This document shows, one piece after another, positions 5,546 to 51,399 of a stretch of DNA of 64,000 bases (position 1 is the first letter of the stretch; each line of letters opens with the position of its first letter). Origin of the DNA: Myxococcales bacterium (GTDB taxonomy: Bacteria; Myxococcota_A; Polyangia; Polyangiales; DASUME01); the NCBI GenBank assembly GCA_047601445.1, contig JASGJH010000001.1:5408001-5472000 (forward strand), in the 5' to 3' direction. Below the pieces are notes generated by a model. The model saw nothing but the letters and a program-made list of their open reading frames with translations. It ran no database searches and was not told the origin of the DNA. A program made the position numbers and the translations under genes.

Positions 5546-6086
5546 ATTCCACTCTAGCAGTGCACGGTCAGAAACAAGGACGGAGTGCGTGCGCAGTAGT
5601 GTTGGAGGGGCCTTGGCTCAGACGAATGCGTCTCTACCGAGACGCGTCGGTTTGTGAGAAAAAGCCTATTTTTCAGCTCGATCTCGGCGTGTCTTGAGTC
5701 ACACTCCCGCTCACTTCGCGACCCCCGTCGCGAGTCGAGCGGCAGCACTGTTTGCTCGCGGGGCGGACTCGCCCGCTTCGACCTCACCATCCCCTTGTGT
5801 GGCATCCCCGTCAGGGACGCATAGGGGTGTGGACAAGGTGTATTGCTTGTGGAGAACTCGCGCGCGGCACGTCGCGTACTCGCGTGCAGACGCTGGAAAG
5901 CTCTCCGCAAAGGCGCTTTCCACGCATGTGCCGCGCGACGCGTGGCCAACTGGGTGCAAAGGCGCTGCTGCCGATCGCTCGAGCACGGAGCAAGCGTGCG
6001 CGAGGTGCCACGGGAGTGCGCCATGAAGTACTGCCGTCGTGGGGCAGATTCGCTGAAAGGTCGCGCCGTGCGCCCGGGGAATGTCC

Positions 6087-46788: not shown

Positions 46789-46899
46789 AGGGTGGCTGGC
46801 TGGGGCGCGGAGGAAGGCCACGGCGAGGCCTTGCGCCTCGTACCAAACTGAGAGTCCCACAACTAGATCCGCCAGGAAGCCTGCGATAAATTCGTGCGC

Positions 46900-47973
46900 A
46901 TGTCGTCCACCGCTGCGGAAGCGGTATCGTTCGCTGCCTATCGCGACTTCGTTCACTGGCAGTTGAAGCGCTTCGGTGCGTCGTCAGGTGCCCTCGATGA
47001 TCTCACGCAGGAAGTTTGGGTGGTCTCGCTCACGCGCAGCCCACGCCTGCTCGACGACACGGCCACGCGCGCCTGGCTGACCCAGGTGTGCCGTCGGGTG
47101 GTGGCGAGCGATTGGCGCTCACGGGCGCGCTCGCCGCTCTTGTACGGCCCGGCGCCGGAGATTCGGGTCGCACCCGAGCAAGTCGAGCGCATCGACGACG
47201 ACCAGCACGAACGGCAACGTCAGCTCGCGCTCGCGCGCCTGAGCGACGCCGAGATCGATCTGCTCACGCTCTACGGAGGCGGACAGCTCAGCATGCGCGA
47301 GGTGGCCGAGCTCGTGGGCGCACCCGAGCAGACGGTGTACTCCCAGTATCGCGCGGCGGTGGAGCGAGCCTCACGGGAGCTGCGCCGTCAAAGTCATGCG
47401 CAAGCCGATGCGTCCGCCGAGCTGAGTCTGGACGTTCCCGATGCGAAGGACCTCTGGGATAGCGACGAGGCCGCCGCCGACCAGGGCGAGTTCGTGTTCT
47501 ATCGCCGTGACGAGGAGCTCGGGCTGGGACGCCTCGGCAACGTGGTGCTGTGTCGCTGGCGGCGCCGCGCCTACGTGGAGAGCACGCGTGCACTCGAGGC
47601 CGCCATCCGCCTCGCCCATGCTCGCATGCAGCTCCCGGTGCTCCTGGTGAACGACCTCGACGCGGACATGCGTCTACCGAACGTCGACGAGCGCAAGGCT
47701 CTGCGCGAGCACATCCGCACCACCTCCGAGCTCGTGCCGCTGGTCGTCGACGTGATTGCCAACGCCACCCTGCGTCACATGATCAGCGCGGTCATCGGAG
47801 GCATCATGGTGTTCACGCGCTCGCCCACGTCCTTGGTCCTCGTCGGTACGGCCGAAGCGGCGAGCCAAGCGCTGGTCGGCCGAGCCCGCACCTCCCAGCG
47901 CGCGCTGGGGGTCGACGAGTTGGCTGGCGCGCTCGCGGCGCTGCACGATGCGGCCCCTCCGGCGCGGCCCTGA
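46900..47973 (+). CDS. ECF-type sigma-70 factor with a ~190-aa C-terminal extension
   Basis: Region 2: LKRFG...LDDLTQEVW...RAWLTQVCRRV. Region 4: LARLSDAEIDLLTL...LSMREVAELVGAPEQTVYSQ. Confidence 0.8.
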   Translation: MSSTAAEAVSFAAYRDFVHWQLKRFGASSGALDDLTQEVWVVSLTRSPRLLDDTATRAWLTQVCRRVVASDWRSRARSPLLYGPAPEIRVAPEQVERIDDDQHERQRQLALARLSDAEIDLLTLYGGGQLSMREVAELVGAPEQTVYSQYRAAVERASRELRRQSHAQADASAELSLDVPDAKDLWDSDEAAADQGEFVFYRRDEELGLGRLGNVVLCRWRRRAYVESTRALEAAIRLAHARMQLPVLLVNDLDADMRLPNVDERKALREHIRTTSELVPLVVDVIANATLRHMISAVIGGIMVFTRSPTSLVLVGTAEAASQALVGRARTSQRALGVDELAGALAALHDAAPPARP

Positions 47974-48276
47974 GCGCCTGCTGGGTCCTGTGTCAGGGCC
48001 GCCGAGAGCCTCTCTATGGAGAGGGGAAGGCCGGCCCGCATCTGGTTAGACCGGTGGCCGGTGGGGCAGCCGACCTCTGGGGTCTCCTCGGGACCCGCTT
48101 GTGTGGCCTGCCGCACATCTCATGAAAATGCGATTTTTCTCGATCGAAACGCTCATAAATCCCGAAGGCCGCTCCCCACCATAAAGACACAAGCGACGAC
48201 GAACTTAGCTTCGCTGACTTGCTTAGAACGAGCTTCCCTTCCTGCTTCCTCTCCCTTAGCCAACAGGAGTTTGACC

Positions 48277-48468
48277 ATGAACGAGAACATGCTGGTTTCC
48301 CTCGACGACGCGGCTCTTGACGAAGTGAACGGCGGCCTCTCGCTGAGCCTTGGCGTGAACGACACCACCGTCGTCGGCGCGAGCGTGGATCTCAAGGATG
48401 GCATCGGCGCCAGCCTCACCCTGCTTGGCAAGAAGATCGGTTTCAAGCTCGGCATCAGCTTCGGTTGA
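48277..48468 (+). CDS. Double-glycine leader peptide precursor, copy 1 (63 aa)
   Basis: AGGAG RBS; MNENMLVSLDDAALDEVNGG|LSLSLGVNDTTVVGASVDLKDGIGASLTLLGKKIGFKLGISFG. Confidence 0.85.
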   Translation: MNENMLVSLDDAALDEVNGGLSLSLGVNDTTVVGASVDLKDGIGASLTLLGKKIGFKLGISFG

Positions 48469-48535
48469 TCGGCTCGGGTACTCGCTTCCCTGTCGTACTT
48501 TCCTGGTGCTTCCTCAACTTACTGGAGAATTGATC

Positions 48536-48727
48536 ATGAACGAAAACATGCTGGTTTCCCTTGACGACGCGGCTCTTGACGAAGTGAACGGCGGCCTCTC
48601 GCTGAGCCTCGGCGTGAACGACACCACCGTCGTCGGCGCGAGCTTGGACCTCAAGGACGGCATCGGCGCCAGCCTCACCCTGCTTGGCAAGAAGATCGGT
48701 TTCAAGCTCGGCATCAGCTTCGGTTGA
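48536..48727 (+). CDS. Double-glycine leader peptide precursor, copy 2 (63 aa)
   Basis: GGAG RBS; protein identical to copy 1 except one V->L; other differences are synonymous. Confidence 0.85.
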   Translation: MNENMLVSLDDAALDEVNGGLSLSLGVNDTTVVGASLDLKDGIGASLTLLGKKIGFKLGISFG

Positions 48728-48745
48728 TCTCCTAGACTCCTGTCG

Positions 48746-48784
48746 GCAAAGACGCCGGGCCCCAAGGGCTCGGCGTTTTGCTTT
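48746..48784 (+). terminator. Intrinsic terminator after the peptide genes
   Basis: GCAAAGACGCCGGGCCC-CAA-GGGCTCGGCGTTTTGCTTT: GC-rich hairpin with a T-rich tail. Confidence 0.75.
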
Positions 48785-48888: not shown

Positions 48889-51399
48889 ATGCGTTCGCGC
48901 TGGTGGCTGTGCTTGGTGTTGTGTGGAACTGCGTGTGGAGAACGCACCGTCGTCCTGGTGCCACAAGAGGGCGAGGTGGGCTGTGATGCCTGCGTGCCCG
49001 CTCAGGACTCGGGCACGAACCGGCCAGATTTCCCCGAATTCTTGAGCCAGGGCAGCTGGGCCTCGGACCAACCGGGTTGCACGCACGGGGGCAGCGTCTT
49101 GCAGTCGGGCTACGACCGCGACGGCGACAAGCTGCTCGACCCCGACGAGGTGATGGCGACGTCGAGCGTCTGTGCGGAGCTCACCCCATGCGTGGTCGAG
49201 GAGAGCGCGACCCAGGTGACCGTCACCTGCCCGAATCAACCGGCCGTGGTGGTGGATCGACCGGAACCCGGCATGCCCGGGGTGATGACTCAGGTGAAAC
49301 CGGCGGGTAACGAGTGCCCGAACGGAGGCTTCCGTGTCGAGACCGGACATGACGCCGACGGCGACCAAGCCCTGACCGGTGGAGAGGTCGAAGGCCTGAG
49401 CTGGGCATGCGCTCCCTATTGTGGCGACGGGACCACGGATCCCGGCCTGGGCGAGGGCTGCGACGACGGAAACTCCGACGACCAAGACGGCTGCGCCGCC
49501 TGCCACGTCATCCCCGACTGCGCCTGGCCCGACCCCGACGAGGGCTGCCCGGCCTTCGAGTTCGCGGTCACCTCGGCCGCGCCGATCTCCGGACCAACTC
49601 AAGGCGGAACGCAGATCACCCTATCCGGCGCTTTCCCCAGCGTGACCACGGCAGCCAACGTAGAGGTCGTACGCAGCGGCAGCACCACGCCCCTCACGGT
49701 GGTCGATGCCTCGAGCAGCCGCATCCGCTTCCTGACACCCGCGGGCAGCGGTCTCACCAACTTCCAGCTTCGCATCGCGGGCAAGCTCGTGGAGTTTCAG
49801 CGCTACGTGCAGAACTCGGACGGACGCACGGAGGTGGCGCTGGAGAACGAACTGGCCTTTGCCTACGACGCACCGGTGATCAACAAACTGACTGGCTGCG
49901 AGGACCATCCACCGGCGACCACCCACTGCCCCGACGCGGGCGGCACCACGATCACCATCGATGGCCACAACTTCGGCAGCCAGGCGAGCGACATCAGCGT
50001 GATGCTCTCGCAGGAGAACCTCGGCGACGTGCCCTGCACCCAGGTGGCGCTGGTCGAGCCGCACACCAAGATCTCGTGCACGCTGCCCGCCTACACTCGC
50101 TACGAGCCCAGCTTCGACGTGAAGGTCCAGGTGGCTTCGCGAACCAGCGAGCCCGCGCCCCTGCTCGCCTACGCGGGTATCGCGGTGGTGCCCGGTACGC
50201 TGCACCTCGAGGGTGCGGAGCCGACGAGTCCGCTACTGCTGTCCGACGTGACGGGCGTGTACGACCTGGTGTTCGACGTGAGCGGGCTCTCGAACGCACA
50301 GAGCGCGCTGGTGCGCGTGGGGTCGTTCCCCTGCACCGGAGTTGGCTTGGTGCATCATGACGGCTCGGACCTCACCACGGTGTCCTGCAGTGTGGGCCCG
50401 GCCGCGGGCGCCGACTTGCCCATCGTAGTGCGCGACGGCGATCGCTACTCCCCTCCGAGCGAGGATCGCATCAACTATCCCGCGCCCAAGATCATCGCGG
50501 GCACCATCCGCGGAGCGCTCGCGGACGACCTCGGTGAGACCAGCTTCAGCGCGCAGGCTTCGCAGGGCGACCGGGTGTTCTTCGATGTCGAGAACGTGTT
50601 CGACAAGGCGGTGACTCCCCCGCTGTTCAGCGCGCACGTGGGCCCCTACGCCTGCGATCGCTTCGTGATCCACGATGGCAGCCCGGCCACCGCCGAGTGC
50701 CAGCTTCCGCTCGGTTGGGGCGGCCCCTATCACATCACCGTGAGCTCGCGCGGTCAGGACAGCGAGCCTGGCACGGACAGCGTGAGCTTCCCCGACACGC
50801 CCACCATCGTGGCCCTCGCGGGCTGCCCAGGAGGCACCGCGTCCGCCACTGGCGGCTGCTCCACCGAGGGCGGCATGGAGCTCAGCGTTACCGTCGATCA
50901 CCTCGATTATCAGCCTGGCGATCCGCTGAGCGTGTGGCTCGGCAGTGCTCCGTGCAGTGAGCCGCGCGTCTCCTTGCCGCTGCCCAACAACGCGGTGCGC
51001 CGGCGCATCTACTGCACTGTGCCTCCCGGCCTCGGCAACGCCGCGGCGCGCGTGATCTGGGGCCTGAAGCAGTCACCTCCGGCGGCGCTCTTCGCCTATG
51101 GGTCACCGACCATCGACTCCCTGAGCGGCTGCACGGACCAGGGCGACACGACGCTGGCCTGCCCGCGCAACGGTGGCGTGAAGCTCACCATCCAGGGTGA
51201 GAACTTCGGCGCTTCGGGTGCCCAGGTGCGTATCGGCGAGCAGAACTGCCTGGGCGTCGCGCACGACGTACTCACACCGCACCGAAAGCTCACGTGCACA
51301 TTGCCGTCAGGGTCGGGCCAGAATGTGCCTGTCTGGGTCGTCAACGGCGGTAGCGGGGGCGAAGCGTTTTACATGAGCTACGCCCCAGCGGGCGGCTGA
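48889..51399 (+). CDS. Surface lipoprotein with a myxobacterial Cys-rich repeat and multiple IPT/TIG domains
   Basis: GTAC lipobox; two C.NGG/HGG...G.D.DGD..L...EV modules; CGDG...EGCDDGNSDDQDGC...C; TIG-type GPTQGGTQITLSG, GGTTITIDGHNFG, GGVKLTIQGENFG. Confidence 0.85.
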   Translation: MRSRWWLCLVLCGTACGERTVVLVPQEGEVGCDACVPAQDSGTNRPDFPEFLSQGSWASDQPGCTHGGSVLQSGYDRDGDKLLDPDEVMATSSVCAELTPCVVEESATQVTVTCPNQPAVVVDRPEPGMPGVMTQVKPAGNECPNGGFRVETGHDADGDQALTGGEVEGLSWACAPYCGDGTTDPGLGEGCDDGNSDDQDGCAACHVIPDCAWPDPDEGCPAFEFAVTSAAPISGPTQGGTQITLSGAFPSVTTAANVEVVRSGSTTPLTVVDASSSRIRFLTPAGSGLTNFQLRIAGKLVEFQRYVQNSDGRTEVALENELAFAYDAPVINKLTGCEDHPPATTHCPDAGGTTITIDGHNFGSQASDISVMLSQENLGDVPCTQVALVEPHTKISCTLPAYTRYEPSFDVKVQVASRTSEPAPLLAYAGIAVVPGTLHLEGAEPTSPLLLSDVTGVYDLVFDVSGLSNAQSALVRVGSFPCTGVGLVHHDGSDLTTVSCSVGPAAGADLPIVVRDGDRYSPPSEDRINYPAPKIIAGTIRGALADDLGETSFSAQASQGDRVFFDVENVFDKAVTPPLFSAHVGPYACDRFVIHDGSPATAECQLPLGWGGPYHITVSSRGQDSEPGTDSVSFPDTPTIVALAGCPGGTASATGGCSTEGGMELSVTVDHLDYQPGDPLSVWLGSAPCSEPRVSLPLPNNAVRRRIYCTVPPGLGNAAARVIWGLKQSPPAALFAYGSPTIDSLSGCTDQGDTTLACPRNGGVKLTIQGENFGASGAQVRIGEQNCLGVAHDVLTPHRKLTCTLPSGSGQNVPVWVVNGGSGGEAFYMSYAPAGG

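Follow-up and report, generated by a model that had tools for sequence, protein, structure and literature searches.

A family of double-glycine-leader peptides with a predicted all-beta core, probably exported in trans, from a myxobacterial genus

To our knowledge, the unmodified products exported behind double-glycine leaders by Gram-negative bacteria fall into two groups: membrane toxins of helical or glycine-zipper type, and proteins that carry short amyloid hotspots. The EbfG1-4/PteB system of Synechococcus elongatus is described as combining small double-glycine proteins with a C39 cysteine-peptidase transporter; in a heterologous assay amyloid was formed by EbfG1-3, which have a role in biofilm formation (PMC4997328, PMC9981879). 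MccAB1 of Acinetobacter baumannii is reported to build biofilm with amyloid fibres and to have two predicted transmembrane helices (PMC13188072). The ten classic class IIa microcins are given cores of about 5-10 kDa, or 60-90 amino acids (PMC10233263), and the classic microcin system, as described, has one membrane-fusion gene. CdzC and CdzD of Caulobacter crescentus are described as a two-protein glycine-zipper toxin with a membrane immunity protein, CdzI, and CdzC as forming surface aggregates (PMC5380434). Bacteroidetocins are described as class IIa-like and disulfide-bonded (two to four Cys), with resistance mapping to BamA (PMC11901371).

The locus analysed here is a pair of peptide genes in a 64,000-nucleotide stretch (the window) of the genome of a Myxococcales bacterium. 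What is new is the core of the encoded peptides; systems of this kind (class II microcins, EbfG/PteB, Cdz) were already known, and such peptides had been reported to form amyloid.

Tandem precursor genes and their surroundings

Two 192-nucleotide open reading frames of 63 amino acids each lie in tandem on the forward strand at 48277-48468 (copy 1, P0001) and 48536-48727 (copy 2, P0002). Each has its own ribosome-binding site, read from the sequence: AGGAG at 48265-48269, 7 nt before the first ATG, and GGAG at 48524-48527, 8 nt before the second. In copy 1 the 20-residue double-glycine leader is encoded at 48277-48336 and the 43-residue core at 48337-48465 (4263 Da if unmodified); in copy 2 the leader is at 48536-48595 and the core at 48596-48724 (4277 Da). 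Longer overlapping reading frames at 48016-48468 and 48398-48727 were rejected as starts because the family alignment begins at the second ATG, the one bearing the ribosome-binding site.

The copies differ at six codons: five synonymous third-position changes and one GTG/TTG change, which gives V37L in copy 2. This synonymous excess departs from neutrality (binomial P = 0.004). GC3 was 0.83 and 0.84 in the two copies, in a genome of 66% GC. A tandem pair of the same family, 258 nt apart, was found at an unrelated genomic position in the same-genus genome G004; its proteins are identical and its 11 differing codons are all synonymous (P = 1e-7). The window precursor genes are real, translated and under purifying selection.

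Copy 2 is followed on the forward strand by an intrinsic-terminator-like element (48751-48784) consisting of a 12-bp hairpin (48751-48777) and the T-rich tail TTGCTTT. The hairpin folds at -29.7 kcal/mol (z -3.85), with none of 200 shuffles as good; it was absent from the list of a simple pattern-based terminator scanner. An earlier note, made from this DNA alone, had described the two genes, their codon differences and the terminator in these terms, and all of this was confirmed. It had also called the flanks of the two copies unrelated. That was true of the alignment overall, which is poor, but the last ~17 nt around the ribosome-binding site and a pyrimidine-rich stretch do align.

A conserved upstream element, likely the promoter region, was placed at 48121-48214 on the forward strand by aligning three orphan loci (those of the window pair, G004 and L063), and the resulting profile matches this position by construction. 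The next match in the genome, at 4866913-4866986 (E 4.5e-4), lies before the operon-borne paralogue described below. The window pair and the paralogue have homologous upstream DNA, which suggests shared regulation. An ECF-type sigma factor gene (46894-47973), with a C-terminal extension of about 190 amino acids without a family match, lies directly upstream of the pair; the other neighbour is an IPT/TIG gene (48889-51399). Since the tandem pair in G004 has neither neighbour, no link between these genes and the window pair is assumed.

No C39 domain was found in the window. A search for small open reading frames with a predicted membrane segment within 1.5 kb of 12 loci revealed none that recurred and none at all at the window locus; those flagged at other loci overlap or oppose known genes or have no ribosome-binding site. 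Six flanks contained no conserved short open reading frame. The operon and orphan loci read each have different, unrelated neighbours, among which were no recognisable tailoring enzyme and no recurring two-component or receptor gene. The picture of a window without transporter, tailoring enzyme or immunity gene, as drawn earlier, is thus unchanged, and the peptide is probably unmodified, as had also been proposed.

Leader, paralogue operon and export in trans

The leader is of the double-glycine type. P0001 has L9, L14, V17 and G19-G20 (i.e., Leu-12, Leu-7, Val-4, Gly-2 and Gly-1), a pattern found in 39 of the 42 family members, and a leader helix was predicted at residues 12-19. The Leu-12, Leu-7 and Val-4 positions of such leaders are described as docking in the protease groove (PMC6363468).

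A genome-wide search revealed exactly two C39 peptidase domains, both outside the window and each 2-4 kb behind double-glycine peptide genes. In total, the genome contains four copies of the family. Outside the window these are a paralogue at 4867145, 584 kb away, and a distant copy at 7659571. The paralogue differs from the window genes at two of 20 leader residues and is 60% identical in the core. It heads an operon in the order peptide, hairpin terminator, MFP, MFP, C39-ABC transporter, with the transporter at 4869359, 2 kb behind the peptide gene. The same order with a family member first was found in L010, L044 (G004), L046 (G006) and L060. A hairpin and T-run separated peptide and MFP genes in six of six folded operons of this slot, a count made without a shuffle control. 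Two distinct MFP genes, one RND-MFP-like and one HlyD-like, precede each transporter in all related operons read (L003:9451-11370), and the catalytic Gln/Cys, His and Asp motifs were intact in all five transporters checked. OEP/TolC-type matches numbered 40 in the genome, were unlinked to the operon, and lay 36 kb away at the nearest. The 5' region of the operon (L003:8970-9145) contains a conserved GC-rich inverted repeat, possibly an mRNA-stabilising hairpin.

Among nine same-genus genomes, a beta-type core was found in five: G003 (cut by a contig end), G004, G005, G006 and G007. G002 contained the family leader with other cores. All six (G002-G007) encode the transporter at 60-87% identity. 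The remaining three contained neither a credible family match nor a close transporter (at least 60% identity); these three are drafts of 87-99% completeness, and the genomes, being kin, are not independent.

Altogether, the co-occurrence of peptide and transporter, the paralogue-headed operon, the shared upstream DNA and the conserved leader positions make export in trans likely, as the earlier note had supposed export to be: the precursor is very probably cleaved after Gly20 and exported by the transporter at 4869359. The window copies could leave through the second C39 transporter of the genome as well, or through it alone.

A second cassette was found at 8271921-8277760 (L004:7922-13761), in which five tandem double-glycine peptide genes of another family precede their own MFP-MFP-C39 transporter. 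The cores of this second family are Asn/Leu-rich and 41-45 amino acids long, several with Cys. Three lone copies were located at 3710592-3711417, and five stand before the orthologous operon of G004 (L045). Similarity to the CTB bacteriocin model NF038167 was weak and sub-threshold, and these peptides are themselves candidates for an amyloid or matrix role. The five-peptide array is immediately preceded by a gene for an OmpA-domain TraB-like outer-membrane protein (L004:5689-7422; 194 bits, cut-off 700), and a long gene with a similar start occupies the corresponding position in G004. The motif GG-N10-GC, which is the sigma-54-type consensus, occurs ~70-110 nt before the starts at 8271921, 3711417 and 3741530, pointing to a common regulon that would include the second family as well as a lone Gly/Leu-rich peptide encoded at 3741530. 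Two orphan double-glycine reading frames were also noted, at 3943749-3943958 and 4099227-4099403; one has a Cys-rich core and the other is Pro-rich and lies beside P450 and ATP-grasp genes. A related MFP-MFP-C39 operon was found in another family of the order (G011, L054:4762-12457). It includes a long reading frame at 5936, possibly an outer-membrane factor, and two Asn-rich double-glycine peptides, one reaching 28.6 of the 32 bits of the CTB model cut-off and the other Trp/Arg-rich at its start.

Predicted fold, family and variation of the core

The 43-residue core of the window peptides contains no Cys, Trp or Tyr. In P0001 its front half carries a charge of -2 and its back half +3, and the same acidic-front, basic-end split was found in 24 of 42 family cores. 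Two AlphaFold2 runs, using alignments of 21 and 42 sequences, predicted a four-strand amphipathic meander (strands E21-27, E30-38, E42-49 and E52-59) plus the leader helix. Confidence was moderate (core pLDDT about 78, 72-79 over residues 21-60; overall mean 69; pTM 0.43). The composition, the charge split and the meander agree with what had been read from the sequence at the outset.

Hydrophobic/non-hydrophobic alternation in P0001 alone was 9, vs. 3.9 +/- 1.7 in shuffles (P = 0.007). Over the 42 cores it was 346 vs. 165 +/- 11, a family-wide statistic inflated by the choice of members and faces by eye. A windowed hydrophobic-moment test gave only marginal values for individual sequences (P about 0.05 for P0001), less clear than the alternation count. 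Across the 42 cores, face A was 80% large hydrophobic and 0% charged and face B 75% Gly/Ser/Ala/Thr, figures that are partly circular, as the pattern itself and the strand boundaries guided the assignment of columns to faces, which was done by eye. Gly42 is conserved in every sequence, and 36 of 42 cores have an (F/L/V)-G-(K/R/H) turn. Trp and Tyr together made up five of 1886 core residues, vs. 6.4% in 47 beta-barrel-like C-termini of the same genome, a roughly chosen set; Cys made up two of 1886, in two of the 42 cores, and Ser plus Thr 19%. Net core charge ranged from -2 to +3 and GxxxG averaged 1.6 per core. None of the 42 cores contained a 19-residue hydrophobic stretch, the length of a transmembrane helix.

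The beta-signal consensus is a terminal aromatic residue with alternating hydrophobics, and BAM takes its substrates from the periplasm, where type I export does not deliver them. The earlier claim that the core ends like an outer-membrane beta-signal did not hold up: the window peptides end in Gly, a strict signal occurs in four of 42 cores and a terminal aromatic residue in eight. C-termini vary freely, with Gly the commonest last residue (15 of 42).

Successive homologue searches yielded 13, 9 and 47 proteins. The family set consists of 42 distinct sequences, kept by eye for the common core pattern, with cores of 39-52 amino acids; 12 proteins were left out as leader-only (P0012-14, P0017, P0018, P0021, P0046-51). 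The approximately 40 homologues are confined to one genus among the genomes searched and keep both the Leu-12/Leu-7/Val-4/Gly-Gly positions and the hydrophobic/small alternation. The 31 same-order genomes outside the genus gave one weak match. With up to 15 candidates scored per genome, a class sample of 400 other genomes gave one weak, leader-only match and a phylum sample of 400 genomes gave none. Viral contigs yielded 55 pattern matches, none of which was confirmed. No longer or fused forms appeared at E <= 0.01 among 8000 candidates of 126-2000 amino acids, which is weak evidence; an all-length search gave nine proteins, the single longer one being P0021, with two leader repeats.

Library searches were equally sparse. 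Pfam gave no match for P0001 and three single weak matches across 21 members. NCBIfam matches were all sub-threshold (TIGR03949 in four of 42 and TIGR04302 in two of 42). A sequence search of the PDB gave two chance matches (E >= 0.9) and Foldseek none at E <= 0.001. The best matches of two VIA-align runs were to unrelated sheets at Z 3.7-3.8, with none at Z >= 5, a result that speaks to neither a new nor a different fold. In the ESM Atlas the whole protein scored 0.82 at best, which is chance level, and the core alone had no match. No characterised family was found by any of these routes, and the claim of a new family holds for the core: this is a previously unlisted peptide family with an unusual core, predicted to be all-beta. 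The literature search found no report of the family or of myxobacterial unmodified double-glycine peptides; such sequences could be among the hits tabulated by microcin screens, and the string ‘myxococc’ has no occurrence in the main text of PMC12219008.

The operon slot is variable. In L061 and L062 it carries cores unrelated to the family (z about 1), with MFP 75% and 83% identical, leader 80% identical, and the same 5' region and terminator. One of these other cores also occurs in L063, behind the orphan-type upstream element. In L010 identity is 81% for the MFP, 95% for the leader and 47% for the core, so the core drifts faster than leader and adaptor. The other cores form at least two types (L061:274-465, L062:139-330, L063:1349-1540), in which an amphipathic, helix-like half comes after a single strand; the searches gave about ten proteins of this kind (P0012-14, P0017, P0046-51). 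Operon and orphan copies were mutually most alike in two of three genomes (72% and 84%). In this genome the window pair was nearer to the orphan pair of another genome (65%) than to its own operon copy (60%). Cargo swapping and core drift together favour a role under diversifying pressure, either as a toxin or as exposed surface material.

Possible functions and comparison with known systems

We tentatively propose that the window peptide is an exported, unmodified beta-peptide that assembles itself into matrix fibres or a coat on the cell surface, in the manner of EbfG or MccAB1. The precursor leader would dock on the C39 domain and be cut after Gly20, and the 4.3-kDa core would cross both membranes via the transporter, its two adaptors and a shared TolC. 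Once released, the core is predicted to be a flat sheet of four strands, greasy on one side and covered with Gly/Ser on the other. With a single layer, two unpaired edges and some 16 hydrophobic side chains open to the solvent, such a sheet would not be monomeric in water, which argues for self-assembly. The greasy face could be buried against a second sheet (ribbon or fibre), at a surface or interface (coat) or in lipid (barrel); in a fibre, the flat Gly/Ser faces could pack too. By analogy with EbfG1-3 and MccAB1, the nearest precedents in function, the assembly may serve in the matrix or in adhesion. The window copies would be co-regulated with the transporter operon, and the extra gene copies, together with the terminator between peptide and transporter genes, suggest high output. 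Counting against a fibre, the amyloid motifs of these precedents are mostly missing; GAV/GAA occurs in three of 42 cores.

The same sheet could instead act as an antibacterial microcin, a possible but doubtful role in which a few cores (e.g., 3 x 4 strands) would form a small beta-barrel in the membrane of a competing or prey cell, its hydrophobic face turned to the lipid and its small residues lining the lumen. The anchor of trimeric autotransporters is a barrel with four strands per subunit, and the stems of beta-pore toxins consist of Gly-rich alternating strands, which those of the core may resemble. A greasy outside and small-residue inside would suit a narrow barrel. The main argument for a microcin is the fast core drift and cargo swapping, which are typical of conflict proteins; leader and exporter are also of the class II microcin kind as described in PMC10233263. 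Class II microcins are described as typically having an adjacent immunity gene (PMC12219008, PMC10233263), and no candidate was found beside the loci here. This is not decisive, since bacteroidetocins are described as killing without an immunity protein (PMC11901371), and the producer might be safe because type I export bypasses the periplasm or because an immunity gene lies elsewhere. Also against the microcin, the strands, 7-9 residues long and bounded by tight turns, would be short for a bilayer, the Trp/Tyr girdle is almost absent, charge is near neutral, and there is no conserved C-terminal receptor-binding tail. The extra copies, the terminator before the transporter genes, the lack of an immunity gene and of an aromatic girdle, the short strands and the neutral charge together place fibre or coat ahead of pore. 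The absence of helix-length hydrophobic stretches from all 42 cores points the same way.

Fibre and pore need not exclude each other, judging from MccAB1 and CdzC, which are both fibre and toxin. It is unlikely that one 43-residue unmodified all-beta peptide, leaving by a microcin-type transporter, joins two or three partners in a barrel in foreign membranes, with neither BAM nor a receptor domain nor an immunity protein involved, and also forms fibres on the surface of its producer. If it did, no natural beta-barrel pore bacteriocin would be smaller, and the peptide would be one of several exchangeable cargoes of a plug-in export cassette that belongs to an uncultured myxobacterial genus.

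We consider it improbable that the peptide is a strain-identity or signalling peptide, exported and read by a kin receptor with the variable core as strain label. The core does vary between strains under a constant leader, the operon and orphan copies of two of three genomes are most alike within the genome, and quorum peptides are described as also using double-glycine export (PMC6363468). However, the orphan pair of another genome resembles the window pair more than the operon copy of this genome does, the loci read have no recurring two-component or receptor neighbour, and a multi-copy, strongly amphipathic core of 43 amino acids is large and aggregation-prone for a signal. Very little probability is given to a RiPP precursor modified by remotely encoded enzymes (e.g., Ser/Thr dehydration or epimerisation): the Ser and Thr content would allow it and the nearest Atlas cluster, at the chance-level score, is auto-named ‘putative type A2 lantipeptide’, but no tailoring enzyme lies beside the family operon or orphan loci read and there is no Cys for thioethers. 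Least probable is a beta-signal mimic that binds the BamA of neighbours, or a mini-barrel inserted by BAM in the outer membrane of the producer; the last strand alternates like an outer-membrane strand and bacteroidetocins, a double-glycine family, are linked to BamA (PMC11901371), but those are disulfide-bonded while Cys occurs in just two of 42 cores here, type I export bypasses the periplasm, and the freely varying C-termini, with Gly at the end of the window peptides, argue against a BAM substrate or beta-signal protein.

The reach of these findings is narrow, with one genus among the genomes searched, and the function of the peptide is a proposal. Within it, double-glycine export gains a further sort of cargo, a Cys-free 43-mer that is predicted to be all-beta and has a conserved pattern of two faces, and such systems are extended to a myxobacterial lineage for which no literature report was found. 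A 43-mer can be synthesised, so that pore and fibre are directly testable, and it could serve as a natural model of minimal beta-sheet assembly. The operon slot, which swaps unrelated cores under one leader, is a natural experiment on the purpose of small exported proteins.

Compared with described systems, class IIb microcins differ from the family in having a Gly/Ser-rich siderophore tail, where C-termini here are hydrophobic, and modification genes, none of which were seen at the loci read. The family shares with bacteroidetocins, as described, a double-glycine leader, a Gram-negative producer and no immunity protein; that class was ruled out, as any Cys occurs in only two of 42 cores. With Cdz, as described, it shares small hydrophobic Gly-rich proteins and type I export without its own TolC gene. 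A Cdz-type toxin was ruled out by the near-identical copies, the low GxxxG count (mean 1.6), the predicted all-beta core and the lack of an immunity candidate. The double-glycine leader, PCAT plus MFP with a remote TolC, and absence of tailoring enzymes are those described for class IIa microcins, but assignment to this class fails on the adjacent immunity gene and on core size; the core, at 43 amino acids and 4.3 kDa without a transmembrane helix, differs likewise from MccAB1, and GAV/GAA is rare. The EbfG system is alike by description, with several small GG-motif proteins and a C39 peptidase transporter, here four copies and two transporters. It belongs to another phylum, and its A-(F/I)-N-I-(G/S) amyloid hotspot is absent from P0001 and P0002; in the present family the whole core is predicted to be a four-strand meander, peptide copies stand apart from the transporter, and two MFP genes precede it.
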